This document shows, piece after piece, positions 907 to 60,319 of a stretch of 64,000 bases of DNA. The stretch comes from Candidatus Woesearchaeota archaeon (GTDB lineage: Archaea > Nanobdellota > Nanobdellia > Woesearchaeales > SKGA01): contig JBKHAG010000001.1 in assembly GCA_046543005.1 (NCBI GenBank), positions 1,632-65,631 on the forward strand. Reading direction: 5' to 3'. Position 1 is the first letter of the stretch, and each line of letters opens with the position of its first letter. The notes beneath the pieces were generated by a model. That model worked only from the letters and a program-made list of their open reading frames with translations. It was not told the origin of the DNA and made no database searches. The translations under genes were made by a program, and so were the position numbers.

Positions 907-3174
907 CTATAATTCTTTTCGTCTAAGTTCTTTATCAAACCATTGAGTCCATTCAAATAAAATTTCTTTAGAATCTGCATGCCCTCTTTTTTTTACAACT
1001 CGTTCAACTACTTTGTGAAATGAATCATAAGCAAGCAATACAAAAGGCGCTTCAAGTAAAGAAGAATCTTTTCTTTTTTGACTTGTTGTAAAAATGTGCT
1101 CATTAATTTGGGAGCGCAATAAAATATTTTCCCACATCGCGTCCCAGTCACCTGCATATTCTTTAATTTTTGATGCGATTTCTTTTAAAATATCGCTTTC
1201 ACCATTAAGAAGTTCAGGCGTTGGTTCGAGCTGATCAGTAGTCGCATTATATTTTAACAAATCAACAAAGGCTCCTTCTGATAAAGGATCATCATCCCAG
1301 TCCTTTCGCACTTCAGTGATTTGTAATATTCTTCGTAGCTTGTGTAATCCATCTGCAGATTTAATGGGGTTTGCAATAATAATAATATCTGTTGCTTTAA
1401 AAGAAGTTTTAGGAACACCAATATCATTTACCAAACGGTCAAAAATTCCATAAGGAGTATCGCCATGAATTGTTCCTGCAACAACATTTGCAGCAGCTCC
1501 AACTCTCATCGCTTCATAAAGTGCTTTTGCTTCAGCACTTCTTACTTCACCAACGATTAGCGCACTATCTCCTAATCGAAGCGTACTTCGAATCCCATCA
1601 GCTGCCGAAAACTCATTACCCATTTTTGCAAGAGCGCTTGCGACTTTTAGGGGTTGAATATTAAATCCTAATTCTCGCATAGATTTTGTTGGAAGTTCTA
1701 AAGTATCTTCAATCGTAAGAATTCTGTGGCGACGCATAATAGATAAAATAAGCGCGGATAAAAAACTACTTTTCCCACTACTTCTTGTTCCACAAACAAG
1801 CATGGTTCGCGTCCCATCAATTAAAAACCATAATAATCCTGCAGCTAAACTATTAATCATTTTATAGGACATAAAAAGAGGCAATGTCCAAGGTTTATCT
1901 CGATGTCTTCGAAAAGAAAATGCAAGACCTGTAGGATTAAGCGGTCGCGTTATTGTTGATGTCCTCACACTTGCTCCAGGAAATTCTATTTCCGTATCTA
2001 AAATAGGATTTGCTTCGTCTAAAGGTCTTCCTGACATCATTCGTAATTTTGATGCCCAACTTTGCACATCAGCAACAGTTGGAAAAATATTTGTTTTACA
2101 ATCATCATATTCTGAGTGAACTATATACATAGGTAGTTCGCCTGCAGGACTATTTACAGAAATATCTTGTATTTTAGAATCTTCAAGCAATACTTCAACA
2201 AGTCCAAAACCAACTGTATAACGCACCAGTATTCGTGCAAGCTCATCAAGTTCTTTTTCAGGAATAGATAGCTTTCTATATGAAGCGAGCTCTTCTAACA
2301 AGTCTTTACCTACATTAAAAAAGATTTCTCTCATCCTCATAGGATCAGTAAATTCATCTTGTTCTGGAGTATGCTCACTTAAAATTTTTTTTGCTGTATC
2401 AAGTAAATCATAACGTTCTTCAGAAAGTCTAAATTCAGGAGGAACAATATGATATATATATTGTACAGAATCTGGTTGATCAAAAACAACAATTTCTGTC
2501 TCTCCAACCATATAATTATCAAGCTCATTGGCGTGCTTAGGATATGTAGCCATAAGTTTTGTAAACATAAAATCCGGTTTTATTATAGGGGAAAATAATT
2601 TTCTGTATACGGTTCGTTTTCCTATTTCGTATCCTTGAATATAAGGTCGAGCTAAAAGTAATAATTTTGTTTGAGAGAGTAATTGAATTATATATTCTAA
2701 AAGTTTAGCGTATACTTGATGGCTTTTTCGTAAATTTTCATCAGGCTCTTTGTCTATAAAAATGTGTTCTCGGCGTAATAATCGTTTAAGTAAAACAAAA
2801 CAACCAATAGGGTCTTTTTTGAGTTGAGAAAAAAGTTTTTGATGTAATTCATTATACCTTGTTGCAAGCTGTGAAGAAGCAATACTTTGGGTAAGTGCAG
2901 AATAGCTAAACAATTCTTTATTTCTAACTAACTTTTGATAAAGACGAGCAATCTCAGAAAGTAAAGAAACGTGATGAGTATCATATTCATAATCATGTTT
3001 TTGATTAAATATAATTCTTGTTGCTGTAGGGTTTTCTTGTAAAAGTTCTATGGCCTCAGCCATAGTTATAGGATCATCTTCAATAGAAGGAATGCGTCCT
3101 CTAAGCGTATAATCAACTTGTATAGTTACTGAGGAACCCTCTCTAAGCACATCATAAGAAAGTTGCTTTTCCAT
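907..3174 (-). CDS. Type II/IV secretion-system ATPase, FlaI/GspE/VirB11 family, with ~200-aa N-terminal extension (755 aa)
   Basis: Walker A-like VCGTRSSGKSSFLSAL; FlaI/VirB11 signature SALIVGEVRSAEAKALYEAMRVG (cf. IVGEIR..EA..LFQAM.TG); followed by platform-protein gene. Confidence 0.7.
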   Translation of the reverse strand: MEKQLSYDVLREGSSVTIQVDYTLRGRIPSIEDDPITMAEAIELLQENPTATRIIFNQKHDYEYDTHHVSLLSEIARLYQKLVRNKELFSYSALTQSIASSQLATRYNELHQKLFSQLKKDPIGCFVLLKRLLRREHIFIDKEPDENLRKSHQVYAKLLEYIIQLLSQTKLLLLARPYIQGYEIGKRTVYRKLFSPIIKPDFMFTKLMATYPKHANELDNYMVGETEIVVFDQPDSVQYIYHIVPPEFRLSEERYDLLDTAKKILSEHTPEQDEFTDPMRMREIFFNVGKDLLEELASYRKLSIPEKELDELARILVRYTVGFGLVEVLLEDSKIQDISVNSPAGELPMYIVHSEYDDCKTNIFPTVADVQSWASKLRMMSGRPLDEANPILDTEIEFPGASVRTSTITRPLNPTGLAFSFRRHRDKPWTLPLFMSYKMINSLAAGLLWFLIDGTRTMLVCGTRSSGKSSFLSALILSIMRRHRILTIEDTLELPTKSMRELGFNIQPLKVASALAKMGNEFSAADGIRSTLRLGDSALIVGEVRSAEAKALYEAMRVGAAANVVAGTIHGDTPYGIFDRLVNDIGVPKTSFKATDIIIIANPIKSADGLHKLRRILQITEVRKDWDDDPLSEGAFVDLLKYNATTDQLEPTPELLNGESDILKEIASKIKEYAGDWDAMWENILLRSQINEHIFTTSQKRKDSSLLEAPFVLLAYDSFHKVVERVVKKRGHADSKEILFEWTQWFDKELRRKEL

Positions 3175-8161: not shown

Positions 8162-8776
8162 ATGGCACAAGACCCAAAAAACAGATTTTCACACATTAAA
8201 GAAGAGTTTATTCAAATGCAAAAAGCGTACGAAGAAGACGATAAACTTCGTGAAGAAATAATAATCTTATCAAGAGATATTATAAAACCATCTAAACAAG
8301 CAATTTACAGCGTACACAGAGAACAATTTGATCAAGCTCAACAACAATTAGAACATGCTCGAGAGCAAATTCACAAAGCAAAAAAACGAATCGAACAATC
8401 ATCTTTTGACTATATCGGTTCTTTTCGTGCGGGCCTTGAAGAATATGTTGAAGCGATGCTTACCTTTTCCTTTATGAAAACTGGTCAAATCCTTTCTAAA
8501 AAAGACTGTGAACTCGAATTTGAACTTCCTTCTGAAACCTATATAGCAGCAATTAGTGATTTTACTGGCGAACTTGTTCGCGCAGGAGTACGAGCAGCAA
8601 TTGCTAAAAACAAGAAACTTATCACACAAATTCATCAAACTATTGAAGAATTACACGGACTTACCATGGGCTTTAATGCGCGTTCAGGAGATCTTCGAAA
8701 AAAAATCGACACCATAAAATATAATTTAGCAAAAATTGAAAACATCGTTTATGATATTACTATAAAACAAAATTAA
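8162..8776 (+). CDS. Translin-family protein
   Basis: C-terminal region ISDFTGELVRAGV...GFNARSGDLRKKIDTIKYNLAKIENIVYDITIK aligns by eye with the translin C-terminus (..DLTGELMR.. / GFRLLNLKNDSLRKRYDGLKYDVKKVEEVVYDLSIR). Confidence 0.6.
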   Translation: MAQDPKNRFSHIKEEFIQMQKAYEEDDKLREEIIILSRDIIKPSKQAIYSVHREQFDQAQQQLEHAREQIHKAKKRIEQSSFDYIGSFRAGLEEYVEAMLTFSFMKTGQILSKKDCELEFELPSETYIAAISDFTGELVRAGVRAAIAKNKKLITQIHQTIEELHGLTMGFNARSGDLRKKIDTIKYNLAKIENIVYDITIKQN

Positions 8777-23757: not shown

Positions 23758-24126
23758 TTACTCATCACCAATGTCTTCATTTGAAGAATGTAACATCATA
23801 ATGGCTTGAGCAAGATCGCCTTTTGATTTCTCTAAAGCTTCTTTTGATTCTTCTTTACTTGCCCCAGTTTGTTCAATTATCGTTTGAATATCTTCAGCTG
23901 TGATGTCTGGAGTTATTTCTCTAGTTACAACATCAAAATCACCAACGATTTGAAAGGTATCTTGACCCATCATATTTACTTGAGAAACTTGAGGATTTGA
24001 AAATACCAAATCATGCTCAGGCATGCTAATAATAACTTTTGTTGCTTCAATATCTTCTTGTTCAACGCCCATCTTCTTCATGGCTTGTTGCATTTGTTTA
24101 GAATTCATATTCATTCCTGGAAACAT
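23758..24126 (-). CDS. nac: Nascent polypeptide-associated complex alpha subunit (NAC domain + C-terminal UBA)
   Basis: MFPGMNMNSKQMQQAMKKMGV...VIISMPEHDLVFSNPQVSQVNMMGQDTFQIVG (NAC domain) and C-terminal UBA-like IQTIIEQTGASKEESKEALEKSKGDLAQAIMML. Confidence 0.75.
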   Translation of the reverse strand: MFPGMNMNSKQMQQAMKKMGVEQEDIEATKVIISMPEHDLVFSNPQVSQVNMMGQDTFQIVGDFDVVTREITPDITAEDIQTIIEQTGASKEESKEALEKSKGDLAQAIMMLHSSNEDIGDE

Positions 24127-24148
24127 ATTTTCACCTCTACGAACATTC

Positions 24149-24301
24149 TTATAAATTATTTAGCACAATTGTAATAATCACAACTAAAATTGCAATAAAA
24201 AGGATTGTTTGTGGTGGAATGTGAAGTCGTGATTTAGACTCTTCATAAAAAGTCGTTAGTCCTGCGCCACTTGAAGGCATACGTACATTATCTTTGGCCA
24301 T
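24149..24301 (-). CDS. Sec61-beta / SecG (archaeal preprotein translocase subunit), ~50 aa; ORF-track 90-aa version is over-extended
   Basis: MAKDNVRMPSSGAGLTTFYEESKSRLHIPPQTILFIAILVVIITIVLNNL: SSGAGL..YxEE motif plus single C-terminal TM, typical of Sec61-beta; internal ATG at 24299-24301. Confidence 0.6.
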   Translation of the reverse strand: MAKDNVRMPSSGAGLTTFYEESKSRLHIPPQTILFIAILVVIITIVLNNL

Positions 24302-24400
24302 TGGAAAAATAAGAAACCCCGAGAAATTTATAAATGTTTTTAAAAGACGAGGCCGTAAAACAACAAATACAGAGAAAAATAAGAAAAAATAGAATAAAAA

Positions 24401-24762
24401 ACGTAGAACAAAGTAAGCCACCTTCTGTTACGACCAAAATACACACCATATGTGCATCGATATCGTTGATTGCATTTTACTAAGCGTCAATATGACTTGC
24501 ATCTATTGGGGCGCACGTTTCATCCCTTCAATTGGAGACGTCCACGGATGAGAACACCAGTGTTACCACGATGTCGAGCCGTATCATTCCATTGTCCAAA
24601 AGCGGTGTTACACAGTCAAAGCAAAGCTTTTTTGTGCATTGAGCAAGCTCAATATTTCTGTACGGTTGCCAGCCCTATTCGAACTCTTCTTTACGAAGCA
24701 ACATTTACGATGGATGGACTTTCCTAAAACCAAGAGGTTTTGAGCAATCTCTTCGTCCTACG
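24401..24762 (-). ncRNA. rnpB: RNase P RNA (archaeal type-A-like)
   Basis: Minus-strand reads CR-I GGAAAGUCC (rc of 24716-24724) preceded by P3 hairpin AAAACC-UCUU-GGUUUU; GGGCUGGCAAC (cf. GGGCAGGUAAC); ACAGAAA + perfect P12-like hairpin AUUGAGC-UU-GCUCAAU; 3' CR-V ACAGAAGGUGGCUUA (cf. ACAGAACCCGGCUUA); P4 pairs 5'-AAG(U)CCAUC with GGUGGCUU-3' with compensatory changes; P1 CGUAGGAC/GUUCUACG; region is GC-rich relative to surroundings. Confidence 0.7.
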
Positions 24763-24786: not shown

Positions 24787-24794
24787 TTTATAAA
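24787..24794 (-). promoter_or_regulatory. Archaeal TATA box (TTTATAAA) ~25-32 nt upstream of the predicted RNase P RNA 5' end
   Basis: Canonical TATA octamer at the canonical archaeal spacing relative to the P1 helix start. Confidence 0.4.
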
Positions 24795-29832: not shown

Positions 29833-30402
29833 TTACTCACAAGTAAAAAAAGAAGAAATTTGTGATGCAGAATACCCTCTTTTACGAAGAGTTTTATAAA
29901 TTATTTCTTGAGAATATCCTTTTTTTTGTAAATCCCAAACATAGTTTTGTAATTGTACTTTTTGCTGATGATATGCATTTTCACTGTGCTCGACTCGTTT
30001 GATAATCAAAAAAATAAAAATGATTAATAAAATAAGACCTGCTGTGACAAACCAAACCCATGTAAATGAAGAAGTTTCTTCTTGTAAAATGCGAGACTCG
30101 GGTGCAGGAGCAATTATTTGAGTATTGTCTTCTATATCAAATACGTATTGTTGATATTCTTTTTTGAGTTCCTCAGATGTTGGTTGAGAATAATCTTCTA
30201 AAGAAACACCTGAATCGTTAACTAAAGGTGTTGAATCAAATTCATTAATGCAAGAAAGTGTTAAAAATTCCTGTACGCGAGGATCGTTTGTTGTAGATAC
30301 ATCTGCACAAGAAATGCAAGTAACTATAAAAGAACTGTTAGCCACTAATAAGATACATAAAATAAAAAATACTATTGGTTTTATACATTGTTTCTTACGC
30401 AT
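29833..30402 (-). CDS. Type I membrane protein (signal peptide + C-terminal TM) with cytoplasmic KKGY...ISSF tail; start corrected to internal ATG overlapping the giant-gene stop
   Basis: MRKKQCIKPIVFFILCILLVANSS... ; TM WVWFVTAGLILLIIFIFLII; tail LQKKGYSQEIIYKTLRKRGYSASQISSFF resembles the C-terminus of the 1073-aa giant protein. Confidence 0.45.
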   Translation of the reverse strand: MRKKQCIKPIVFFILCILLVANSSFIVTCISCADVSTTNDPRVQEFLTLSCINEFDSTPLVNDSGVSLEDYSQPTSEELKKEYQQYVFDIEDNTQIIAPAPESRILQEETSSFTWVWFVTAGLILLIIFIFLIIKRVEHSENAYHQQKVQLQNYVWDLQKKGYSQEIIYKTLRKRGYSASQISSFFTCE

Positions 30403-33400
30403 AAAACAAGCCTCCAGAGTATGAACAAACATCAACATCATTATCTTGCATATACTTTTGAGCATTTTGCCAATTAGTTGAACCATATTCAAAATGCCAT
30501 CTTTCGCCTTTAAAACAAAGCCAACCTAAAGGACATAAAAAATCTTCTTCAAATATTCGATTACCTTCTTCATTTTTTATGACTACATCTATTGCAGCGC
30601 CCTGCAAATGAGTGCAACCATCATTAAGGGTTTCAGGCGTTCCAGGATTACATGTAGGAACTTTCATTTTTCCAGTTTCTTCATCAATATCTTTTGAATT
30701 CATATCATATAACCATTTTTGGATATCATACGTTCTATGTGCTTGATTTATGTACATGGTGTAATTTGCTTCTTTAAGTTTTTTATCAAGCTCAACTAAT
30801 TGGTTTACGAGTTGAGGAATTGCTGCACAAATTCTACGTTTTTTATTTGGATCGTTTGTAAAATATGCTTCTTCACAAGTGATGCGTTCAAACTCAGGAA
30901 ATTCTATTGCATTAATACCTGTTACTGTTTCGTATTCTCCACCACATAAATCGTTTTGTAAAAAGGAATCTAATAAAACTGTCGCGTCGTGGCGCATTTG
31001 CATTGTTGAGGCGATAGTCTCTCCTTCTACTGCAAATACTGCATAGGAATATGTTTTACCATCGCAGGCAGTTACCAAACCTGCCTGAGTTGCAATATTA
31101 TGAGGATATGATTCTGATGCACTCATAAGACCTGTTTTTCCTATTGCAGTATCTTGAGTAAAACCTGAACTAGGCATGTCTGTAAAAAAAGGATATTCTA
31201 AATCATTATACATAGATAACATATCTATTGTTTTTTGTTGCGCTTGTTTTACGTGCGCATCGTATGCTTGTTGAGAAAGGCCTAAAGACTGTTTTACCTT
31301 TGAAGCCATAGATGAAGGTAATGTTAATTTTTTATTATATAATTGAGAATAAAATAAGGTAAAATCATCTGCAGTACTTGTTAAACTTGAACGATGATTT
31401 TTGTAAGCTTTAGCAGGGGAAATAGATGAAGAGGATACGCTTTGCCACGCAGTATATGTACTATCTTGTAAATTATTGTTTTCTAAAAAAGAATCTAAAG
31501 CAGAAAAAGCAGGAAGGGAAAAATCGTTTTGAGAAAGCATTGATTCAATATGCTCTAAAACGAGTGTTGTTTGTTTGTTATCGCTTACTTCAAGCATAGG
31601 TTGCACGTGAGTATCTAATTCAGGCCATTGATTTGCAGGCGTTAGTGCGTAAGCAAGGGACGCTAACTTTATTTTAAAGGCACTCATTGTATCGACAACT
31701 TTTTTAGAATTAACTGAAATAAAGGGTTCAGATACAAAAAGCATATCATCATTTGTAGTTGTTAAACTCACCGCTAAAAGACCATCTTCTTGGGAAAAAG
31801 CGTTAGCCAAATCATCTAAATCTTCTTTAAGGTAAGAAAATGCTTTTGTTTGAGAAAGTTGTGTTGAAGAATCCCCTTGAGCTACTTGTTCAATAGTTGG
31901 TGAAAAAGAACTAATTAAGTCCGTGTATTGTTGTTGGACAGTTCGTAAATAGGAACCAACATATACAAAACGTTCTGCGGCGCAGGATTGAGCAGGTTGT
32001 GCGAATGTTTTTTGAGGCCCATAAGGGGTGCTTGCAGTAAATGATTTAAATTGTATTTGTTGACTTTTTTGAGGATAATGAAGGTTATCATAAATATCAA
32101 TTTCTGAAGAAACAACAGAATACGTATGCGTATAATTTATATCTTCCACCATAGAATCTTGTGGAGCCCACAAATACGTGTATATAATAGAACCGTCATC
32201 TTGTATTTTTTTAAAAAGAGTATTTTTTTGATCATAAGGGTCTGCAAAATTTTCTCGTTCTTTTGCTCCTTGTAAAGGAATACGTCGGTGAGCAAGAGAA
32301 GAAGGTATTGATGCTAAGGAATCTTCATTCGCAGAATCATCTAACATACTTTTTTTGTATGTTTGATATTTTTCTTCTGAAGAATATAAATCTAAAACGA
32401 AAGCAAAAGGTTTATTTTCATCTTGAGTTATATTCCAAGAAATTAAAAGAGGAGTGCTATCTGTTGCGCATGCTTGTTGTTGTATTTTGGGCACAGTAGG
32501 TTCATAGTCTATTTGAGACGCAAGTTCAACACCAAAACGCAATTTTTTTTGTGTAAAAGGAAATTCTGCTTGAAAACGGTATGCTGTTTGCGCAAGAGAG
32601 CAAGAAAATTCACCATAAGAAGTGTTAAAAGGAATCCAATGAAGAGGATATAAACGAGTTGCTTTTTCATTTGTGCGCGATTCAGATTTTGCAGTTACAT
32701 CTCCACACATATCAACACGACAAAATGTTTGAATAGTGTATGTTCTTTCAATTTCTTCTAATGTATTGTAGCACACAGGATCTATTGAATGAATAAAAAT
32801 AGGTTCACCTTCAGGGTCTGGTTCAAATTCTAATTTACAACGAGAATTTTTTGGCGAAGGTTTTGAAATAATTCCTTTACCAACATATATTCCTGTATGT
32901 CCTAAAGCAGTTTTTTTTGTCGCGCTAAATAAATCCCCTGGACGCAATAGTGCAGGATTAATAAACTGGTTATCACGTGTTGATTGTTGATTACATTTAT
33001 CAAGTCCTGTACCTAAAATTTCTTTTTGTAAGGAATTGTTATTATCATCTTTTGCAAAATAATATACGCTTTCAACAAAAGTCGCATCTTGAGTTGTACA
33101 CGTGCCAGCAGAGGCGTCTTGAGCAGAACAGCGAGTTGTTTGTCCAAAACCTGTTCCTACATATTCTTTTGCATATTCAACAATATTTGAACAACTAGTA
33201 TCTTGAATTGATAACTCGTCAATGTCTTCTAAAAAAGTTACAAGTTCACAATATGTTTGTGTTAATTTTTGTGCGTATTCACACGTTTTATCTTTTGTAA
33301 AATAAGGTTTTCTTGTCGGGTCATCTCCTTGGGCTACAAGCGCATGATCATAACTTCCTTGATATGAACAAAAAATACAATTCCAATATGTTTGTGGATC

Positions 33401-35806
33401 GTTTTGATAGGGCGCGCATTTAACATAATTTCCTGCAGAAAGTGGTTGAGGAGTTTTAGTTAGTACTTCTTTTACTGCACCGCTATCGACTTGCGCAGTA
33501 CATCTAAACTGGTCAAGATCTGAGCGAACATATTCTTGTAAACTCGGTGTTGGTCCTTGCTCACAAATACTACTTTGCCAGCCACAACCAGTTAATGAAC
33601 TTTGTTGTGTGCTTAAAACACAACTATTTTGTAATCCCATGCTTGATTCATGTATTGCATGCGTAAGTAATAATGCAGGGTCTGCATCAAATTCTTTTGC
33701 AGCTTCTAAGGCGATTTCTAAATATGTTTTACCATCAGAATTCCAAGCAATTTCATATAATTGTTTTTGATAAGTTGTAGATAATTCTTCAGTTCCAGAA
33801 CATGAAAAAACAGGTCCTGTCGCATGAGAAACGTCTTTGAGATCATCTTGAGTATATGCTTTGTAAAGAGAAGGTTTAACATTTTTTACATCAACAAATG
33901 AAGGTAAAAAAGAATTTGTCATGAATTGTAAAGAATCAGATGATTGTTCTGTTGCAAAATCTTTATCAAACACCCACTTTTGTTGACCTGCATACAAGGT
34001 TGTTTTTTTATTTTCTTTGTCAAAAATAAAATATACTTGAGACTCTGCACTATCAGATAAATATAATTTAGTAGGTGAAAAAGGAAGTTGAGTAATATAT
34101 TGCATTGAATCAGTTTGTGGTTGTGCGTCTACAACTTTTGTAACAAAGGCTTGACCACTTTCAAAAAGTACCAAAGCCACTTTATCTTCAGAAGTTGGTA
34201 AAGAATAATCAATATCAAAAGTGCACACACAAGATGTTGTTTTTAATTGTTGACAAGCGAGTAATTGGTCTAAAAAATCATACACTAAAGCGTTTTCTTC
34301 CTTGTCAAGAGTTATTTTTGTTTTCAATTTATGTTTTTTATTAAACTGCGCAGTAATTTTTTTTACACAGTCTTTTGTTGGTTGCGTACATGACGTTTGC
34401 AAAGTCTGGACAAATTCATCTAGAGGGTTAAAATGAGAAAATAATAAAGAAGTAGAAGTTGAAAGCGAAGGCGTAAAATAAACAAACCCTCCTATATCAG
34501 TATCTTGTTGATTTGCGTTCTCTTCTATATTAGTAACACCGCTTTGATTATAAGAATAGCGAATAACTGCTAAGACATCTGTAAAATCAGAAGTTGCATA
34601 ATAATTGGGAATTGTGCGTTGTACTAAGCCTTGTGAAGGTGTTGATTGAATTATTTGTCCATCTCCAATATATAATGCGACTTCACTTATGGGTGTAGAT
34701 CTTTTAAAAGTGTCTGTAGAGTCTTGAATAAATAAGATATCCCCTGGTTGTGCCCTATCAAAAATATGTGTTAAACTACACGAAGGAATATCTTCATTTT
34801 GCAAACTACTCTTTTTTGAAGCTATAAAATCATCAAAATAAGTTCCACAAACAAGCGTAGTTTCTTCTTTTGTTGCAGCAACATAATATTGTGAAGGCGA
34901 ATCTCGTTGATTAAGTAAGGAAACATTTGCATGCTTTGCAACCCACCAAATCCAACCAGCGCTATCAAAACCAGGAGTTGAAGGTATTCTTGTTTGACTC
35001 ACGAATTGTTCTGCTACAACGTCATGAAAAAAACTTTTTTCTTCGTTTTTTGTTTGATCCTTAATTATTTGAGAAAAGGTATAAGGTGATTCTCCACCCG
35101 GCACATACTCAATATGTTGATCTCTTACGTGTCGCTCATAAAGTGATTGACCTACTTGAGCAAAACATTTTCCTGTTGAACACGTAATAATAGTTTCTTC
35201 TTGGATAGAATCAACATCTAGTAATTGAAGACGAAGTAAGGCATCTTGAATGCGAGGCACAGAATTTTGTGCTTGAACAGTTCGTTGTTTTAAAGGTATT
35301 TTTGGTTCTTGATCAATTGTTGCAAAAATCGTTGTGTGATTCTTTTCTTCTTTAAATTCATAGTCATACACAAACTGTAAGGAAACTGGTTGAAACTGAC
35401 CTACAAATTCTCGCACAGCTGCAGAAAGATACATTTGAAAAGATTCTTCAAAATCAGGAACACAATTTTTTGTAGGAGTTGCATAGGTGTTATATAATAG
35501 AGAACCACAAGGAGGTTTTTGTTTACTTCCCGAAACTGTATTTTGTAAAAAAATTCCGCCTTGTTCAAAAAAATCTTCTTGAGCTTTTTGAGCTGCAAAT
35601 GTCGCACCCATATCAATATAAAGATCAGCATATGTTGCCAGTTCTGATTTGTACAACATATCGTATTGTATTTCTCCAATAGGATTATCTACTTGAACAT
35701 TTGTAGCATTAGAAGACATCACTAAAAAAGTAATAAAAAGTAAAAATACTCCTACAGGCACACCTATAATAATTGCTTTTTTTGAAGACAATAATTCTTT
35801 TTTCAT
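30395..35806 (-). CDS. Giant (1803 aa) N-terminally anchored extracellular multi-domain murein-hydrolase-like protein: two NlpC/P60-like domains, SLT/lysozyme-like domain, C-terminal M15 (VanY-type D-Ala-D-Ala carboxypeptidase) domain
   Basis: NlpC/P60-like 1: GFDSAGWIWWV...PGDILFI...ISEVALYIGDGQII (cf. GFDCSGF...PGDLVFF...ISHVGIYVGNGQMI). NlpC/P60-like 2: QDASAGT...RPGDLFSA...GHTGIYVGKGIIS. SLT-like: LTHAIHESSMG...SLTGCGWQ. M15: CNPGTPETLNDGCTHLQGAAIDVV...GERWHFEYG (cf. PGTSEH..G.AIDI / E.WHF). N-terminal signal-anchor KKAIIIGVPVGVFLLFITFLVM. Confidence 0.65.
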   Translation of the reverse strand: MKKELLSSKKAIIIGVPVGVFLLFITFLVMSSNATNVQVDNPIGEIQYDMLYKSELATYADLYIDMGATFAAQKAQEDFFEQGGIFLQNTVSGSKQKPPCGSLLYNTYATPTKNCVPDFEESFQMYLSAAVREFVGQFQPVSLQFVYDYEFKEEKNHTTIFATIDQEPKIPLKQRTVQAQNSVPRIQDALLRLQLLDVDSIQEETIITCSTGKCFAQVGQSLYERHVRDQHIEYVPGGESPYTFSQIIKDQTKNEEKSFFHDVVAEQFVSQTRIPSTPGFDSAGWIWWVAKHANVSLLNQRDSPSQYYVAATKEETTLVCGTYFDDFIASKKSSLQNEDIPSCSLTHIFDRAQPGDILFIQDSTDTFKRSTPISEVALYIGDGQIIQSTPSQGLVQRTIPNYYATSDFTDVLAVIRYSYNQSGVTNIEENANQQDTDIGGFVYFTPSLSTSTSLLFSHFNPLDEFVQTLQTSCTQPTKDCVKKITAQFNKKHKLKTKITLDKEENALVYDFLDQLLACQQLKTTSCVCTFDIDYSLPTSEDKVALVLFESGQAFVTKVVDAQPQTDSMQYITQLPFSPTKLYLSDSAESQVYFIFDKENKKTTLYAGQQKWVFDKDFATEQSSDSLQFMTNSFLPSFVDVKNVKPSLYKAYTQDDLKDVSHATGPVFSCSGTEELSTTYQKQLYEIAWNSDGKTYLEIALEAAKEFDADPALLLTHAIHESSMGLQNSCVLSTQQSSLTGCGWQSSICEQGPTPSLQEYVRSDLDQFRCTAQVDSGAVKEVLTKTPQPLSAGNYVKCAPYQNDPQTYWNCIFCSYQGSYDHALVAQGDDPTRKPYFTKDKTCEYAQKLTQTYCELVTFLEDIDELSIQDTSCSNIVEYAKEYVGTGFGQTTRCSAQDASAGTCTTQDATFVESVYYFAKDDNNNSLQKEILGTGLDKCNQQSTRDNQFINPALLRPGDLFSATKKTALGHTGIYVGKGIISKPSPKNSRCKLEFEPDPEGEPIFIHSIDPVCYNTLEEIERTYTIQTFCRVDMCGDVTAKSESRTNEKATRLYPLHWIPFNTSYGEFSCSLAQTAYRFQAEFPFTQKKLRFGVELASQIDYEPTVPKIQQQACATDSTPLLISWNITQDENKPFAFVLDLYSSEEKYQTYKKSMLDDSANEDSLASIPSSLAHRRIPLQGAKERENFADPYDQKNTLFKKIQDDGSIIYTYLWAPQDSMVEDINYTHTYSVVSSEIDIYDNLHYPQKSQQIQFKSFTASTPYGPQKTFAQPAQSCAAERFVYVGSYLRTVQQQYTDLISSFSPTIEQVAQGDSSTQLSQTKAFSYLKEDLDDLANAFSQEDGLLAVSLTTTNDDMLFVSEPFISVNSKKVVDTMSAFKIKLASLAYALTPANQWPELDTHVQPMLEVSDNKQTTLVLEHIESMLSQNDFSLPAFSALDSFLENNNLQDSTYTAWQSVSSSSISPAKAYKNHRSSLTSTADDFTLFYSQLYNKKLTLPSSMASKVKQSLGLSQQAYDAHVKQAQQKTIDMLSMYNDLEYPFFTDMPSSGFTQDTAIGKTGLMSASESYPHNIATQAGLVTACDGKTYSYAVFAVEGETIASTMQMRHDATVLLDSFLQNDLCGGEYETVTGINAIEFPEFERITCEEAYFTNDPNKKRRICAAIPQLVNQLVELDKKLKEANYTMYINQAHRTYDIQKWLYDMNSKDIDEETGKMKVPTCNPGTPETLNDGCTHLQGAAIDVVIKNEEGNRIFEEDFLCPLGWLCFKGERWHFEYGSTNWQNAQKYMQDNDVDVCSYSGGLFYA

Positions 35807-47289: not shown

Positions 47290-47865
47290 TTACACCTCAT
47301 TTGTGCTTAAAACAAGCGTTGTTCTTCCTAATCCTTGCATTCGAAATCGCGCGCGACCATTTGTTGCTTGTTTACACAACACAGAAACAGAGCCATCATC
47401 ACCTAAACCATCGTCTTCTTCATCTTCATCTAAAACTATGTAAGAAGAATATCCTAAAGGGTATACAATAGAGTCACTAATTAAAAAAAGATTTGTTGAC
47501 ACGCCTTGCTCTAAAGAACGAAGAATAAGTTTTTTAGAAGACGAAGAAAGATCATATATACCTGTAAGAGAAATGTCAAGTTCATCGTTTGAGTTTCGTA
47601 TATCTGCAATTGTTTGTGCAGAGATAAAACATAAGGTGTGATACTTGCCAGGAAATACCCATTGTTCTTGCGTTACTGAACCATAATCATTATTTCGCTG
47701 TAAAGCGGTTTGTACATCATCAGAAAAACGAATTAAATCAACTAAATCTTTATCTTGCATAACATCATTAACACCTTTAAAACCCACAAAAGATAAAATA
47801 ACAATAATAAAAAGAGCAGCAATGAGAGGAAACAATAATTTTATTTGAGCAGTTTTAGCAAACAT
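47290..47865 (-). CDS. N-terminally anchored pilin-like protein, 191 aa
   Basis: MFAKTAQIKLLFPLIAALFIIVILSFVGF; stop/start abuts neighbours. Confidence 0.4.
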   Translation of the reverse strand: MFAKTAQIKLLFPLIAALFIIVILSFVGFKGVNDVMQDKDLVDLIRFSDDVQTALQRNNDYGSVTQEQWVFPGKYHTLCFISAQTIADIRNSNDELDISLTGIYDLSSSSKKLILRSLEQGVSTNLFLISDSIVYPLGYSSYIVLDEDEEDDGLGDDGSVSVLCKQATNGRARFRMQGLGRTTLVLSTNEV

Positions 47866-50800
47866 TATGTTTTACCCCCTACAACATCTTGATAAAAAGA
47901 AGAAATGTTTTTAGTTTGTATATATCCTTTTTTTGCCAGACGAGACAATACACTTTTTACATCTTCAGAAGTGAGTTTTTCTTGATGTAATAATGCTTTT
48001 AGAAGAGAAAGTAAAGCAGGCGTGTCTGATGCATACACAGGTATTTTTTTAGCAAATAAATGCATAAAAAGGTCTGGGGTGATGTGTCGAGGAACAGTTG
48101 TTGCGTGTTTTGAAAGTTGAGTTTTAGAAACATCTTCTGTGTGAGCTTTGTCAATTAGAGAAGATAATGATTTAAAAGTTTTTGAAGACGGCAAAGGAAT
48201 AGAAGACGAAGTAGGTTGCTTATCAAGACTTATTTTTTCAAGAGATGGTGTATCATCTTCACTTGGACTTTTAGAAACGGCTTTTTTATTTTTTGCTTGA
48301 AAAGAAGGTTTTGAATCAGCATCACCATCATTATCTGAGGAGGATGAAAATGCGCTTAATAAAGATTTTCTTGAAGATGATCGTTCTTGAACTCGTTTAG
48401 ATCTTGTCTCTTCTTGAAGCTGTTTTCTTTTTTGCATAAGTTGAGCATACTTTTGTTGTCGAGCAATTTGTTCTTTTCTTGAGAGTTCTTCTTGGCGTTG
48501 TTGTTGGGCCGTTTGTTGATAAGTTCTTTGCTGTTTATTTTGTTGAGATTTTTCTTTTTGAGAGTGATAAATAAAAGCCACACCGCCAATCATAAACAAC
48601 AATCCTAAAATAATAAACGTAAGTCCTAAAAAAGATATTGATGAGTCAGTGGAGTCGGAGTCTTGAGTGCTATCCCGACAATTTCCTGAAGTTGAGCAAT
48701 ATTCTTCTGGTTTACAATCATCATCGCTCGTACATTCTGCTTCGTATTCACTATATCCTAAAGAAAATTGTTTACTTGCAAATACTTCGTCTCCAAAGTC
48801 ACATACTACAACCCACTGGTTAAATTCTTCTGTTTTATTACTTACAAAAGCAGGATGAGAGCTTGCATCGATTGTTTGTTTGTGGGTCGTACTGTTAGTG
48901 ACTGTAAATGTTTCTAATGACGCAAACCAATCTTGTTTATTTGTTGGATGCGTTGATTCAAAAAGTCCTTGAGTGCAAGTTGCATCGTATGTTGTTTGTA
49001 CTTCTAAGTCAATAGTTTTAGTACTTGAAGATCCTTGACGAGGAGAAATAAGCGTAATATCTTGCTCTGCAATATCGCTTTGAGAAAGTGTAAATGGCGT
49101 TGCAACATCGCTAAGTAAAACGCTACCGTTAGTTTGTAAACCTGCAACATCACTACCTTGATAACAAAATCGCGTATCTGTTGGTGAAGATATTGGCATG
49201 GAGTAACTTGTTGATTGATTAAAGGTCGTGCATGATTCGTTGCTATCTATAAATGAATAAGATACTGTTTGCGTACATCCACTTCCTACATCTGCACAAG
49301 TTGCATTAATAAGATAGCCCGATGGTTGTTCTTGCACATCAAGAGTTATTACTGGAGGCACATCGTCACAATATAAATAATCTGCACTTCTTTGCGTAAC
49401 ACTAAATGATGACGAAGAGCTATTATGTCCTGCGCGATCTTGAGCATACGCAGTTACCACATAGGTGGAATTTATGTTAGTATCAATACTTGAAGGGAAT
49501 TCAAAATCTAACTCATCGTCTGTAAAACTTGTCGTATAATTTTCTAAAAGAAAAGTAGTGTTTTCTTGTTCGTTAATTGAAATAATATATCGCACTGTAT
49601 CATTTATTGGTTCTGCAAAGGTTACTTGCACATCAGAGCCACAATGATTTTTTGTTGAATTAAACACTGGCTGAGCCGGCTCTGTAGTATCAATATAAAA
49701 AGTAAATGTTTTAAAAAATGAATCTGCCGCTAAACAATAAATATCAATTGGATACGCACCATCATCTAAACTTACAGGAAGTTCAAACTCGTGAGTCTCA
49801 TTTAAAGTAGTATTGTTTGTTATATTATCAGCTAATTGTTCATCTTCATAATCAAATACATATTTACATGCTGATAAAGTGTTAGTTTGTAGCGTAAGTG
49901 TTGGTTGTTTTTTTGAAAAATAATATTCTTGAAGATTTGCTCGAAGTGTGGTGTTTAGATGAATTGAAAAATCTTGAACTTTGGATTGTTTATGTCCTGC
50001 TAGATCATAACAAGTTGTATTAAGAGTATAATTATAAGTATCTCCGATAATAAACTCTTGAGAAACAAAATTAAACGCCTTATTATATGAGGAACTAAAA
50101 TCAAAAATACTTGTTGCTTTTTGTCCAGTATACAAATCACTTGTTGGTTGATAATTTGGTGAAGGATTTTGTAAAAAATCATATGAACACAATAATAAAT
50201 CTTGAGATGTTGATACTATTTTTTGAGTGGTAGAAATATTTAAAATATCAAAAATGGTTTGAGGTTGTGCTTGCGAACTAAAACTAACCCCTGAAGAATC
50301 ATACCCTATATAAAAAGGATTTGCATGATATGTATAATCTCCATCTTGGCCTGTTTGACAAAGTAATAAATAATTATTATTTGTTTGAAATGAATCAGAA
50401 GTAAATTCCTTTGCAACTAAATAAGTTTGAGGTTCTAAGTCTGAAACATCATCAGATGAACTTACAACTAATAACTCGTGAGTGTGTGCTTGCTCGTCTT
50501 CTCCTAATTCGTCATCCACACGAATAGAAGTTGGTAAACTAAAAAGGTCTTCTTCATTTAATATTCCTAATTCTAACAACTCATTATTTTCTACTAACCG
50601 ACAACGAGATTCGTGTTCTGTTTGAAAAGTAACATTAAAAGGTGTTTGGTTCCTTACCGCACTGTCTTGAGATTGTGAAGCGTAAAAAGTATTAGCAGGC
50701 GAAGTAATCCATGCATCCATAGGATTTGATTCTACTTCGAATGCTTTAGTAAATGTTTTTTCATTCCCGTCTGTATCTTGTGACGTAAGCTCAAATTCAT

Positions 50801-51086
50801 ACTCTCCATTAAATAAATAAACTTGAGACATACAAGTAAACGAACGATTATAATCATCTTCTTGGACACATTGAGCAGAGTATACCTTTTCTGAATCTAA
50901 AGAAACAATTTCTGAAGCAAGTATGGTAACTGGAGCGTCATGCATTTCAAATTCTACTTCAAAAAAAGGTATTGGCGAATAAGAACTTGCAACTGTTGTT
51001 GAAGCAAGAACAGGCGATAGTGAGAATAAAAGAGCCAAAGCTAAAAAAGAATAAAGCAGTAACTTTTTTTTTAGCTGTGTATTCAC
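47865..51086 (-). CDS. Giant (1073 aa) type I membrane surface protein: signal peptide, large acidic/Cys-containing ectodomain, TM, coiled-coil Q/K/R-rich cytoplasmic tail ending in KKGY..ISSFY motif
   Basis: MNTQLKKKLLLYSFLALALLFSLSPVLAS; TM ISFLGLTFIILGLLFMIGGVAFIY; tail QQRQEELSRKEQIARQQKYAQLMQKRKQ...; C-term LSRLAKKGYIQTKNISSFYQD. Confidence 0.55.
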   Translation of the reverse strand: MNTQLKKKLLLYSFLALALLFSLSPVLASTTVASSYSPIPFFEVEFEMHDAPVTILASEIVSLDSEKVYSAQCVQEDDYNRSFTCMSQVYLFNGEYEFELTSQDTDGNEKTFTKAFEVESNPMDAWITSPANTFYASQSQDSAVRNQTPFNVTFQTEHESRCRLVENNELLELGILNEEDLFSLPTSIRVDDELGEDEQAHTHELLVVSSSDDVSDLEPQTYLVAKEFTSDSFQTNNNYLLLCQTGQDGDYTYHANPFYIGYDSSGVSFSSQAQPQTIFDILNISTTQKIVSTSQDLLLCSYDFLQNPSPNYQPTSDLYTGQKATSIFDFSSSYNKAFNFVSQEFIIGDTYNYTLNTTCYDLAGHKQSKVQDFSIHLNTTLRANLQEYYFSKKQPTLTLQTNTLSACKYVFDYEDEQLADNITNNTTLNETHEFELPVSLDDGAYPIDIYCLAADSFFKTFTFYIDTTEPAQPVFNSTKNHCGSDVQVTFAEPINDTVRYIISINEQENTTFLLENYTTSFTDDELDFEFPSSIDTNINSTYVVTAYAQDRAGHNSSSSSFSVTQRSADYLYCDDVPPVITLDVQEQPSGYLINATCADVGSGCTQTVSYSFIDSNESCTTFNQSTSYSMPISSPTDTRFCYQGSDVAGLQTNGSVLLSDVATPFTLSQSDIAEQDITLISPRQGSSSTKTIDLEVQTTYDATCTQGLFESTHPTNKQDWFASLETFTVTNSTTHKQTIDASSHPAFVSNKTEEFNQWVVVCDFGDEVFASKQFSLGYSEYEAECTSDDDCKPEEYCSTSGNCRDSTQDSDSTDSSISFLGLTFIILGLLFMIGGVAFIYHSQKEKSQQNKQQRTYQQTAQQQRQEELSRKEQIARQQKYAQLMQKRKQLQEETRSKRVQERSSSRKSLLSAFSSSSDNDGDADSKPSFQAKNKKAVSKSPSEDDTPSLEKISLDKQPTSSSIPLPSSKTFKSLSSLIDKAHTEDVSKTQLSKHATTVPRHITPDLFMHLFAKKIPVYASDTPALLSLLKALLHQEKLTSEDVKSVLSRLAKKGYIQTKNISSFYQDVVGGKT

Positions 51087-51116
51087 CCATTCACCTCTTT
51101 TTGTAAAATAAAATAA

Positions 51117-54100
51117 TTATAATCCTTCGTTAGTATCTCCTATCGTTGTTAAAATAATAGTAGGCTCATCAAATGTTGTTTTTCGAAGTCTCATGTTTAC
51201 TGAAACAACTTCTCCTGTGTTGCCTAATTCATCTTCTGCCCACACGTGTAAATGTTTATTTGAGTATTGTTGTGCATTAAATGTAGCCAATTTAGTATAC
51301 TCTTCTTCATCTGAAAAAGAAACAGGGGAACTAGATTCTAAACAATAAGTCGAAGGGTTAAATTCATCGCCTAACGCTAAACCACTACCAACACAATATC
51401 GTATCATTTTGCAACCAGCATGTACAACCTCTGGCTTATCAGTACAATTTACAACAAATGTTCGTTCATCGGCCCAGTGTACCGATTCAGAGTTATCATG
51501 GTAGATTTGCGGAGGCGAATCATCAATCTCAGGATACTCTTCATTAAAATCATCATCTTCATACACAACATCTTTATGATATAGTGTTACTTGAGGTCCT
51601 TCTTTATCAATTACAAAATTAATAGAATCTGCTTCTTGATTTTGTGTTATTGTATCATCTTCAAAGTCACAACTTGTATAATAATGCACATAAGTATTGT
51701 CATTAGTTAAAGTCAAAGGAACACTTGCTGTGTGTGTATATGTTCCATCACTGTTTTGAGAACTTTGATCAAAAGAATACTGTCCTTGAGTTGTTATTTT
51801 TTCTTGGTCAAAAGTACAATTTCCTGGTTGTTGCGTGACAATTGAAAATTCATCCACGTCATCAATTGAAGAGAAAAAGTCTGCGTGAGGACTTGGATTA
51901 GTAATACTTATGTCGCCATCTATGGTAATGCTCGTTGTATTTTCCACAGTATTTCCTGCTTCATCTGTGCAAGACAATTTTGCTTGATACAAACCATCTT
52001 CAAGGTTTTGAATCTGAATAGATTCTTCGCTGGTTTGTTCAAAAAAATAGTGCCAATTATTAGGACTACCCATTTCTTGATTGGATACTTGTAGTTCGCA
52101 AGTAGATGGTTCTGATATCGTAAAATTATATTCTAAAATACTTCTATAAATATCCCCTTGCAAAATTTGTTGCGAATACAGTTCATAAGAAATATCCAAA
52201 TCAGGATTTTGCGTATCTAAATAAATTTTCGCAGTGTTAAGTTCTTCTTTATTTTGAGCATCGTCTTGGGCGTAATAGAGCAACAAATATTCTCCTTGCT
52301 CAACTGCGGATTCTTCATTTTGCTCTTGTAAATCATCAACAAGATCATCAAACGATTGTATTGGATATAATTGATATCCCTCGTCTACACAATCTTGAGC
52401 TCGTTGAAGAATAGGCATTTGAGAACTTTGAGCATCATCGTGTGTTGGTGAATCTGTTTGTGTTTGTTGTCTTTGGCTTAAATCGTATTCAGAATTAACT
52501 TCATCATCAGGAGGCGTATTTTCTTCTTGTGTTAGATCTTCTTGATGTTCAACAAGTAAATTCCTACAGGATAAAGAATCTGTTGTAATAGGAATTAAGC
52601 TAGCATATAATTTAAGACCCTTATCAGAAAACACATTATCAGAAATAGTATAGTCTAAATTTTCAAGTGTTTGTAAACTATATGTTGGTAAATTATTTGA
52701 GTTTTGATTAGTGTTAAGAACTAATTTTGTTCTTGGAGCACTATTATCTGTATAACAAAGTTCATCACTTGAAGACCGACAATCATCTTTAGTTACTCTT
52801 TCTAATTGTTCGTTAGTATTTTTTACACAATAGCCTTCTTGAGAAGTATCTCCTGTTTGAATCCATTGACATGTTGTATAATTAAAATAATCATTACTTT
52901 CTTGAAGTTGTTTATTTGTCCCTAAAACTGCTTCATCGTTAGCATACAAAATATCAAAGGAAGAATTTTTAGCCAAAGAAAGTTTTCCTACACAATCTTC
53001 TTTAGTGTCATAAAAAAAACAACCCATGTCTTCTTTATCAATACAATTTGAATAATAAGTATCACGAGAAATTCCTAAAATATCTTTTGCAACAATTTTT
53101 TCTTTATCTGTGTCTTCTTCATTAGTATCTGCAAATAATCCTCGCTGGTTAAAATAACAATTTTCTCCATACGCTTGACAAACCAACTCATCAGCATAAC
53201 CAGTCACAGAATCATCTGCTAAAAAACAATCTTGTTGAGTAACATTTGTTGGTCGACAAACCCCCGTTTTTAAATCATCATCAATAACAGACCATTCACA
53301 TCCCGAATCGTGATTTTCTTCGTCTGTAAATTTATAACAACTATCCACTTCACAAGAATCTTTGTTTGTATAATCATAACAAGTTTGTATATTATTACAA
53401 GTAGAATATACTTTTTGTGTAGCAAATGGCGAATCAATATAACAAAGTCCTTCACCGTTAGAAACATCAGGACCTGAACCTTCCAAATAGACTAAATCTG
53501 AACAACTTGTTTTTTTACCATCATACATCACGTCTAAATCATAATGACCAAAAAGTCCAAAAAAACCATTGCACGCAACACATGGAGCTTTAGGTTTACA
53601 TTCGGCACCAACATCTGTACTTGTTTCTACGCAAGTTTCATCAGCATCACATTCTTGTCCAAATAAAGATAAATTTACCAAACCTTCATCATTTTTACAA
53701 GATTGCGGAGCGTAGGTTCCTGAGGTAGTTTCTAAACAATTTTTTCCCCCAACATGAGAGGTCATACAATATTCAACACCTGTATTAAAGCAAGGAAGTT
53801 TTTCTTCATCTTCAAAGGCGCAACGAATATTGCCAGCATCATCTTCTAAGCACACATTATAACAATAAGAGGTCTCTGGCTTAAGTTTATTTTCAAAAGT
53901 ATATGTATATACATCATTTGGAGAAGAAAACAAATCACTTCCCGAAATTTGTTGAGTATATGACGTCCCCCCACAATGGCCTTCAGAACCGGATTCTTCA
54001 CACATCATAACTTCATAACTAACAACATCTGATTTACAAGCGTCTTGAATTTTCCAACGAAGTTCAACATTGTTTGTTCCCTGTTCATACCATATTCCTG

Positions 54101-55385: not shown

Positions 55386-55534
55386 CCTTTTTTGATAGTG
55401 ATAAAGCTACATCTTTACAAGACACACCTGTTGGTTTTAAAGAATGACTCTTTATAAATATTTCGTGTAAAGAGGATAAAAATAAGTAATTAAAACAAAA
55501 ACCTGGCCAGCCCTATCCTGTTACAACAAATCAA

Positions 55535-58500: not shown

Positions 58501-59065
58501 TATCTAAGGATAAACGAAATTTTGTCATGTAATCAATAAAATGAGTTTTTGGTGTGGGATACCACGAGTCTTGTTCTTGAGCATTACTAAGATCTATAAA
58601 ACTGTTAGTTTGAGTAAGTGAAGAATCATAATCATATACGTTAGAACAAGAAACATCTGCAAGCACACCCATACTCACATTTCTTTTTTTAGGAGTATAT
58701 GTTACATAAGAGCCCGATTCTCCTTCTTGAGATTTATATTGATGTGCTTTTTCAACGTATTCATGATACAGTATGGGATGTGTAGATGAATTAGTAAGAC
58801 CTCCTTGATAATCATAAATTACACCTCCTTGTTGTGCAAGAAGAATAATTCCTTCGTTTGCAACACGATTCACACAACTTTGTACATATGTTCTAAGAGC
58901 AGTTTGTTCAATTTGAGATTCAAGATTTTCTTCGGCGATGTTTTGAAAAGAAGATTGTTGCAAAGATTGTTGCACAAAGGAAATAAAAAGAACACTAAAT
59001 AAAAGTAATAATCCTACAACAACAAAAACAGCAACTTGACCTCTCCTCTTCATATCCTCTAGCAA
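55535..59065 (-). CDS. Giant (1176 aa) protein with class III (prepilin-like) signal peptide: putative giant minor pilin/tip adhesin
   Basis: MLEDMKRRG|QVAVFVVVGLLLLFSVLFISFV; rest acidic, Cys-rich. Confidence 0.5.
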   Translation of the reverse strand: MLEDMKRRGQVAVFVVVGLLLLFSVLFISFVQQSLQQSSFQNIAEENLESQIEQTALRTYVQSCVNRVANEGIILLAQQGGVIYDYQGGLTNSSTHPILYHEYVEKAHQYKSQEGESGSYVTYTPKKRNVSMGVLADVSCSNVYDYDSSLTQTNSFIDLSNAQEQDSWYPTPKTHFIDYMTKFRLSLDNGGCRGSSDDRVQRSGYMGTNNMAPLCSYDGLNAFNVSSLAVCSPYYYDSAQNNHSLQRQLDTYIKNNLNSCVNFSVFESNAANMRVNESAIEVFSAFQKPKGISFQVRYPFVITIQGKTTTAYADFFEKFDYDLEHLYYYTTSLLSEFVRNPEFDLRTDWNTTTTMNRHYKKSFVVEYEQEKYVDDDKIVLGTNNVLRIKDSASQVGDQSLYFNIGVQQRAPVLDYLRQKGTQLVLFDKPIDYQFVAGKPIKLEPSGIDPDLDDIEFQYGGWRQEYTTIVDWQCCQEDEANLQKCIELDSTSNCVDVFNLNDNGTIDQKEFGSSSNAQETVPTWMNSSLYQQTNQSASIPTTVEDIGVHDVLVMLRDEFGQIDFQNVSILVFDLPEAHLNLLNEYDDVNNSFASIEDKYIVNASRSQPSTLLGGHISTYVFKDNTEDFRINSTDDVFFVANHSLYSSFNLSLGKFTKQFFSTADDSSPQKHLIEFYVQQNQTTFENDDLATSPTFTSEVLTQDVYVAQCLPHGYDGGYDFDVQDYATDTYPLLTVLDPDNSDLLQSPHVCCDPNSFPSLLEGGKFYSNNQKCFSIHGDDFITCAPNDYEDWDYFSHLLVESNDGSSSLETYDDYEISSTDNSFNDILSLAISQECSGSRGAFCSGDVTITRESLQVCNDFNDFEEQYENLDLDGQQFARCQGPGFSQSQKIQGSSCGENFVLKESIDEHNVMCYNYSSQNSFEKDRSLEVDDEYIDLLDEGLCGSEQGVDIGWNSQGLQIDPVTTSEVFSCYATCDETSGQCSYHDVTQCKMSLNADEKCQGISAELFFSDNNDYFVCRATNDNSAGCDEEGNSYESQTTAIGCTCATALLQTFGDDTWADTSFLAEFENITPNWFGNSLQPYDDYNIDRCCDDEDDYFSQSDLYKNNGRDWTCIAGDLVASGDIVSDNRLLSLDGIIYPCFEDFSDCRDVFTSSLCLNNDATVDGFECTGSGWEEQ

Positions 59066-60276: not shown

Positions 60277-60319
60277 TCTTAATAAAGATTACGAAAAAAT
60301 ATTAAAAAAAGAAGAAAAA

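Follow-up and report, generated by a model that had tools for sequence, protein, structure and literature searches.

Gene for an archaeal RNase P RNA that combines a minimal P15 with a covarying P19-position helix in a Woesearchaeota-type archaeon

Identity and secondary structure of the RNA

RNase P is the enzyme that trims tRNA precursors. The 64,000 nucleotide (nt) stretch of DNA analysed here (the window; contig JBKHAG010000001.1 of a Candidatus Woesearchaeota archaeon) carries on its minus strand, at 24402–24762, a 361 nt element that is almost certainly the gene for the RNase P RNA subunit of this DPANN (Woesearchaeota-type) archaeon, a tiny and uncultured organism. A cmscan search of the whole 64 kb with all 4227 Rfam families at their gathering thresholds returned a single match, RF00373 (RNaseP_arch), at 24403–24761 on the minus strand. 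The match spans the whole model (positions 1–288 of 288); its score is 84.2 bits (E = 8.4e-22), the gathering score being 84. When the region was scanned permissively (E up to 10), only the archaeal model was reported and no other family rose above noise. The five conserved regions (CR) of the family, CR-I to CR-V, are all present in the correct order (AGGAAAGUCC, ACAGAAA, GAUGAAACG, GCUUAGUAAAAUG and ACAGAAGGUGGCUUA). Because the covariance-model match reaches the gathering score and the sequence can be laid out as a full and consistent secondary structure, with 105 base pairs (bp) that are without exception standard pairs, we assign the element to archaeal RNase P RNA. A preliminary description, made from the sequence alone, had proposed this identity, and both the end-to-end match to RF00373 and the drawn fold bear it out. 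The minus-strand blocks that it had listed (CR-I, the GGGCUGGCAAC block, ACAGAAA and CR-V) were all located, as was the GC-richness it had pointed out: the GC fraction is 0.44–0.47 inside the element (24400–24700) compared with ~0.25–0.35 in the flanks of this AT-rich genome.

All elements lie on the minus strand and are numbered from window position 24762 (RNA position 1). The ends of the gene are set by P1, a 12 bp helix between the 5′ strand CGUAGGACGAAG (24751–24762, RNA 1–12) and 24402–24413 (RNA 350–361). This helix had been recognized before as a pairing of 24755–24762 with 24401–24408; the helix is real, but it has 12 rather than 8 bp and 24401 lies one base too far. P2 joins GAUUGC (24744–24749, RNA 14–19) to GCAAUC (24468–24473, RNA 290–295), and the Rfam alignment places the P3 hairpin, AAAACC-UCUU-GGUUUU, at 24726–24741 (RNA 22–37). 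CR-I, AGGAAAGUCC at 24716–24725, was located from both the sequence and the Rfam alignment; together with junction J3-4 and the 5′ strand of P4 it lies in the segment AGGAAAGUCCAUCC (24712–24725), which includes the bulged U at 24718 (U45). P4 itself pairs RNA 42–50 with 341–348, AAG(U)CCAUC with GGUGGCUU, giving eight pairs and the bulged U as described earlier, and its 3′ strand is contained in CR-V, ACAGAAGGUGGCUUA (24414–24428, RNA 335–349).

The 5′ strands of P5 and P7 and the P8 and P9 hairpins of the P7–P10 cruciform occupy 24671–24712 according to the Rfam alignment. P5 pairs RNA 51–54 with 260–263 and P7 pairs RNA 60–64 with 255–259; P8 (CUUC/GAAG) spans RNA 65–77 and P9 (AGUUC/GGGCU) RNA 78–92, and P10/11 joins RNA 93–101 to 249–253. 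The GGGCUGGCAAC block at 24665–24675 corresponds to the 3′ strand of P9 and the 5′ strand of P10/11. CR-II, ACAGAAAUA, follows in J11/12 (24653–24661, RNA 102–110; its ACAGAAA starts at 24661), and then come an insertion of 46 nt (24607–24652), P12 (24525–24605, RNA 158–239) and CR-III, GAUGAAACG (24516–24524, RNA 239–247). The remainder of the molecule comprises P15, a 4-bp hairpin GUCA-UAU-UGAC (24486–24496, RNA 267–277), CR-IV with J15-2, GCUUAGUAAAAUG (24473–24485, RNA 278–290), and a 37 nt helix at the position of P19 (24430–24466, RNA 297–333).

Relatives of the RNA were collected as loci around homologues of the neighbouring NAC gene, in which the RNA was sought by a CR-I…CR-V pattern, by Rfam and by a model of our own for the 3′ half. 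For comparison, ~46 genomes of the Woesearchaeota type and 120 or more metagenome contigs were used. The NAC homologues come from Woesearchaeota and Nanoarchaeota metagenome-assembled genomes (MAGs), and NCBI lists an identical NAC protein for a MAG of a ‘Candidatus Nanoarchaeia archaeon’. The 15 relatives that were scanned with Rfam score 78–151 bits against RF00373. The closest relative, L002 (89% identity of the NAC protein), is ~94% identical to the window over the aligned stretch including the flanks. The two sequences differ mainly in stems, by compensatory changes in nearly every helix; in P1, one G-U pair becomes G-C.

In 47 related RNAs all eight pairs of P4 are standard in every sequence, and three of them covary (C-G/U-A, A-U/G-C and C-G/U-A). 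Pair 5 is C-G in 42 sequences and U-A in five, pair 6 is A-U in 21, G-C in 24 and G-U in two, and pair 7 is C-G in 44, U-A in two and U-G in one, which is the window. The P4 pairing suggested by the preliminary description was thus right. Its suggestion of a compensatory pattern within P4 holds for the A-U pair, which differs from the archaeal consensus on both sides, but not for the neighbouring U-G pair, where the change is one-sided. P2 pairs over at least five contiguous bp in 45 of 45 relatives, which use 30 different strand sequences to do so, and the mean run of 6.1 bp falls to 4.3 when partners are swapped between species. The segment of P8 and P9, folded singly for each sequence, gives a pair of neighbouring hairpins in 11 of 14 relatives, although their sequences differ. 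A MAFFT alignment of the P8/P9 region placed the window's subclade one column out of register and was dropped for pair counting.

Two irregularities of the relatives' records were seen. The RNase P RNA region of L075 (~1081–1547) contains a run of N with duplicated flanks and looks like a scaffolding artefact. Records entitled ‘uncultured Methanosarcinales archaeon’ (MAGs of the binchicken co-assembly; L006, L008, L010, L012 and ~25 others) contain NAC genes of the Woesearchaeota type and, in many cases, RNase P RNA genes of that type as well; the titles look like placeholder taxonomy.

The P19, P15 and P12 regions

In the window RNA the 3′ strand of P2 directly follows CR-IV, and an extra segment of 37 nt (24430–24466) sits between it and the strand formed by CR-V and the 3′ side of P4. 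The preliminary description had taken this segment, estimated at ~35 nt, for a possible lineage-specific insertion; it is indeed real, and it forms a covarying helix at the P19 position. A basal stem (ACGAU/GUCGU) is followed by a 4 × 4 internal loop of AUCG (24458–24461) and UUUG (24435–24438) and by a distal 7-bp hairpin (24439–24457). The segment is found in every relative, and the distance from CR-IV to CR-V is 22–193 nt in all 47 of them, with a mode of 41–44 nt, compared with ~15 nt in the Rfam consensus.

An unstructured linker or a recent selfish insertion, rather than a functional helix, would agree with the wide variation in the length of the segment between P2 and CR-V (17–110 nt) and with an Rfam model that has no positions for it. 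We consider this explanation very improbable, since in 45 of 46 relatives the segment folds into a helix with closed ends, and its pairing is retained while its sequence changes. In a MAFFT alignment of 23 sequences, changes on both sides were found in 6/6 pairs of the basal stem and 5/5 pairs of the distal stem, and 86.5% of the cells are paired, compared with 31–45% when the partners are slid; none of 500 shuffles reached the observed covariation score. In a model-based alignment of 51 sequences, which is biased towards the structure it was built on, 92.8% of the cells are paired, the basal stem is 96% paired and all six of its pairs covary. In L002 the distal hairpin is wholly rewritten, from AUGCACA…UGUGUAU to GCAUUCA…UGAAUGC, with all 7 bp retained. 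The internal loop behaves in the opposite way: AUCG/UUUG is present in 27 of the 46 genome sequences and is conserved while both flanking stems vary, and an exact-pattern scan of metagenomes found this form of the loop at no fewer than 120 loci. Judged from these alignments, the extra segment is a structured and selected helix.

The AUCG/UUUG loop may be a protein-binding or tertiary-contact site that stabilizes a reduced catalytic (C) domain. It was compared with the 11-nt GNRA receptor, loop E and the K-turn, none of which fits. In L032 it is replaced by ACCG/UUCG, so that a putative U-U opposition becomes C-C; this change hints that the positions concerned face each other. P19 is listed for bacterial types A and B, archaeal type A and eukaryotes (PMC2858038, Table 3). 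The position of the helix is therefore already known; for the conserved loop we found no precedent.

P15 is reduced to only 11 nt, GUCAUAUUGAC (a 4-bp stem and a 3-nt loop), between J5/15 and CR-IV, and in the P15 region the RNA has 1 nt where the Rfam model has ~35 positions. L15, P16, P17 and P6 are missing, and the same is true of the relatives. The distance from GCAAG to CR-IV is ~10 nt in most of the genome relatives and 8–14 nt in 104 of 108 metagenome relatives. Small as it is, the hairpin covaries in three of its four pairs in the MAFFT alignment and in 4/4 in the model-based one. To judge from the searchable literature, the combination of such a minimal P15 with an obligatory P19 whose loop is conserved seems not to have been described. 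Our coverage of that literature was incomplete, and the absence from it of any account of how RNase P RNA is built in DPANN archaea or Woesearchaeota is weak evidence of novelty.

Lacking L15, the RNA would be unable to pair with the 3′-CCA end of tRNA. Of the nine tRNA genes found in the relatives' loci, at least eight do not encode CCA (that of L047 is ambiguous); the sample is small, but the finding fits the loss of the CCA-binding L15 (for the rationale see PMC4919922). Most of these nine genes run straight into a T-run, and in several relatives (L023, L033, L036, L047, L065, L078 and L081) a tRNA-His gene lies 1–2.5 kb from NAC. Neither ARAGORN nor the Rfam scan at gathering thresholds detected a tRNA gene in the window (1–64000).

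P12 is built from a basal stem, an asymmetric loop (AAUGGAAUGAU/GGACGUC), a middle stem and, at its far end, a hairpin with the GNRA loop GUAA. Pairing is observed in 87.7% of the cells, compared with 34–54% with slid partners, and two-sided changes are seen at 19 of the 21 pairs. The asymmetric loop is conserved and contains a C/D-box-like UGAU…GA. In Euryarchaeota, K-turns in P12 are bound by L7Ae (PMC5499556), and by analogy the conserved loop is probably an L7Ae site as well. When a standard or a double K-turn was fitted manually, the tandem G-A part agreed, but pairing on the side of the canonical helix was not clean, and we therefore call the loop only ‘K-turn-like’.

The 46 nt insertion directly follows ACAGAAAUA and folds into two hairpins, at 24639–24652 (RNA 111–124) and 24610–24637 (RNA 126–153). 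The first of these is the ‘perfect P12-like hairpin’ after ACAGAAA of the preliminary description; the hairpin exists but is not P12. In the alignment the insertion is present in the window and L002 only and is absent from 15 other relatives, and both hairpins show compensatory changes between the two sequences. At the same J11/12 site, L010 has an insertion of 26 nt with two small hairpins; its RNase P RNA (1230–1611, plus strand) scores 78 bits, under the gathering score. The RNase P RNA of L007 (1246–1687, minus strand; 78.7 bits, likewise under the gathering score) carries ~80 nt inserted inside P12.

Expression signals and gene neighbourhood

A TATA box, TTTATAAA, lies at 24787–24794 on the minus strand and is centred 28.5 nt upstream of the first base of P1, in agreement with the position of about −28 given in the preliminary description. 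The motif occurs 13 times in the window, where 9.8 copies are expected; this number is not above chance and only the positions of the copies are informative. Eight of the 13 are centred 21–47 nt upstream of a gene start, while the zone 15–50 nt upstream of gene starts makes up 2.8% of positions, and nine are intergenic in a window that is 92% coding. Nearly all relatives likewise have a TATA-like box this far upstream of P1. At the other end of the gene, a run of six T (24396–24401) directly follows the 3′ strand of P1, with further T-runs behind it, and T-rich runs occupy this position in most relatives. The T6 run would act as an oligo-T terminator. The simplest reading of these signals is that the RNA would be transcribed independently, from a start at or very near its mature 5′ end. 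A scan for bacterial sigma-70 promoters and intrinsic terminators, which is irrelevant for an archaeon, found no terminator hairpin.

Downstream on the same strand follow the genes for Sec61beta (24301–24149) and NAC (24126–23758). The order RNase P RNA, Sec61beta, NAC (23758–24762 in the window) is conserved in the loci of the relatives (L002, L004, L007–L085). Within 80 species-representative genomes, 46 have the RNase P RNA within 2.5 kb of NAC, mostly just upstream and on the same strand as Sec61beta-NAC. The Sec61beta gene was called as a 90 amino acid (aa) open reading frame (ORF) with a GTG start at 24149–24421 (minus strand), which is over-extended; the true gene, at 24149–24301, encodes 50 aa (Pfam Sec61_beta, E = 1.7e-10). 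It has a TTTATAAA box of its own at 24327–24334, centred 29.5 nt upstream of the ATG, a spacing that suggests a leaderless mRNA or one with a very short leader.

Elsewhere in the window, very large ORFs of 1803, 1073, 1422, 1176 and 1187 aa are found at 30395–35806 and 47865–63883 on the minus strand. They have weak matches to NlpC/P60 or Ig-like (Big_13) domains or none, and their products are probably surface or host-interaction proteins of the DPANN cell. Most of the mid-size ORFs near them match no Pfam family. A Translin-family protein (Pfam PF01997, E = 1e-28) is encoded at 8162–8776 on the plus strand.

Alternative explanations, relation to known types and significance

Antisense to the RNA, an 85-codon ORF with a TTG start (24470–24727, plus strand) is open, and L002 has a partly similar ORF. 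The region might on this basis encode an 85-aa protein, its similarity to RNase P RNA being incidental, but we regard the probability of this as negligible. The predicted protein matches no Pfam family, and the TTG from which it would start falls within highly conserved RNA. Indels of 1 nt break the frame in L002 after ~29 codons, the remaining residues continuing in another frame, and the gene caller placed no gene at this position there. The substitutions between the two sequences keep RNA base pairs and not codons, and the match to the covariance model has an E-value of 8e-22. The ORF is not a gene, as the preliminary description had held.

Several observations do weigh against the assignment to RNase P RNA. 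The score of the window sits right on the Rfam gathering threshold, and those of L002 (83 bits), L007 (78.7 bits) and L010 (78 bits) fall just under it. No gene for an RNase P protein (RPP) was found among the scanned ORFs of the window. As a single sequence the RNA folds unexceptionally (z = −1.5), and its minimum-energy fold (−99.6 kcal/mol) differs from the comparative structure (−71.3 kcal/mol without P4), recovering P1, P3, P8, P15 and P19 but not the long-range core; single-sequence folding, however, tells little about the identity of the RNA. Finally, the 46 nt insertion lies inside J11/12, a region that helps to bind tRNA. This is unusual and could impair function, yet the insertion is kept with compensatory changes in L002. 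The lower RF00373 scores follow extra insertions and the core is not degenerate: since relatives with large insertions score just under the threshold, the borderline score of the window reflects its insertions.

The score that barely reaches the threshold, the large J11/12 insertion and the drastic reduction of P15 could also be features of a decaying or non-functional relic, in a cell that leaves the processing of tRNA 5′ ends to the protein-only enzyme HARP or does not need it, as in Nanoarchaeum equitans. To our knowledge, N. equitans lacks RNase P. HARP is found in some archaea, but it is reported to be largely absent outside the Euryarchaeota (PMC6380272). We judge a relic highly unlikely. 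All universally conserved regions are intact, compensatory changes relative to the close relative occur in nearly every helix, the inserted hairpins included, the promoter box and the T-run are conserved, and the same architecture recurs in no fewer than 46 genomes at species level and in 120 or more metagenome contigs. The element is an ordinary housekeeping RNA of a known family, and the structural novelty at the level of the lineage is modest.

With archaeal type A RNAs (e.g. those of Methanothermobacter and Pyrococcus, and most of RF00373) the window RNA shares P1–P5, P7–P12, CR-I to CR-V and the P8/P9 cruciform. As in type A, P13, P14 and P18 are missing, and P12 carries a conserved K-turn-like loop as well as a GNRA cap. 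The window RNA differs from type A in its 4-bp P15, in the absence of L15, P16 and P17 and hence of the P6 pseudoknot, in the helix at the P19 position that is always present in the lineage, and in the 46 nt insertion. The reduced C domain, without P16, P6 or a CCA-binding P15 loop, resembles that of type M (Methanococcales, Archaeoglobus; PMC4919922). However, P8 is present and conserved here and absent from type M (PMC4919922; PMC1874661), and P19, which is universal here, is listed as missing from type M (PMC2858038, Table 3). The specificity (S) domain (P7–P12, CR-II and CR-III) is complete and even enlarged, unlike in type T/P of Pyrobaculum, where almost all of it is absent, and the lack of P13/P14 and P18 together with a match to the archaeal model only sets the RNA apart from bacterial type A. 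It thus belongs to the Rfam family but fits neither strict type A nor strict type M.

There is also an architectural resemblance to eukaryotic nuclear RNase P RNA (e.g. human H1 RNA), which likewise has no L15-CCA pairing, P16, P17 or P6 and has P19 between P2 and P4. We know of no precedent for the AUCG/UUUG loop in eukaryotic P19. Unlike the eukaryotic RNA, the window RNA matches an archaeal covariance model best and has a simple hairpin as P3. Pop1 contacts the P19 of human RNase P (PMC13022451). Archaea are not known to possess Pop1. The P19 of bacterial type B, of some bacterial type A and of some archaeal type A RNAs occupies the same topological position only, which does not imply homology; here the helix occurs together with a minimal P15 and has an internal loop that is conserved and specific to the lineage.

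We tentatively raise the possibility, which we do not yet favour, that the Woesearchaeota-type RNase P RNAs (class Nanoarchaeia) constitute an undescribed class that is neither A nor M, with a type-A-like S domain, a minimal C domain and an obligatory P19, the loop of which would be a new protein-binding or tertiary-contact module replacing the lost P6/P16/P17 strut. In that case the window RNA would belong to the class and carry an extra, rare insertion in the T-loop region of J11/12.

In the proposed model, the RNA gene would be transcribed alone from the TATA-box promoter ~28 nt upstream, transcription would end at the oligo-T run right after P1, and the RNA would assemble with archaeal RNase P proteins, as expected from homology; archaeal RNase P RNAs cleave the leaders of pre-tRNAs together with Pop5, Rpp30, Rpp21, Rpp29 and L7Ae. 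By the same analogy, P1–P4 with the bulged U, together with CR-I, CR-IV and CR-V, would make up the universal core in the C domain. The S domain (the P7–P10 cruciform with P8 and P9, CR-II, CR-III and P12) would dock the elbow of the tRNA by means of CR-II and CR-III. The P4 core with CR-I, CR-IV and CR-V would position Mg2+ ions, and the 5′ leader of the pre-tRNA would be hydrolysed. The P19 helix and its loop probably serve either to brace the reduced C domain or to bind a protein.

For the annotation of the locus, these results mean that the 85-aa ORF should be dropped, the 90-aa ORF at 24149–24421 shortened to the 50-aa Sec61beta gene and a gene for an essential non-coding RNA added. Insertion-rich RNase P RNAs of this kind score at or just under the gathering score (78–84 bits), so that pipelines will miss some of them. 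Such gaps could be mistaken for loss of the enzyme, which is a genuine concern in DPANN archaea. The presence throughout the lineage of a minimal P15 together with a conserved P19 amounts to a natural experiment in stabilizing a reduced catalytic domain. On a modest scale it exemplifies how an archaeal RNA can have a eukaryote-like architecture, and it leaves the basic picture, that of a housekeeping ribozyme gene, unchanged.

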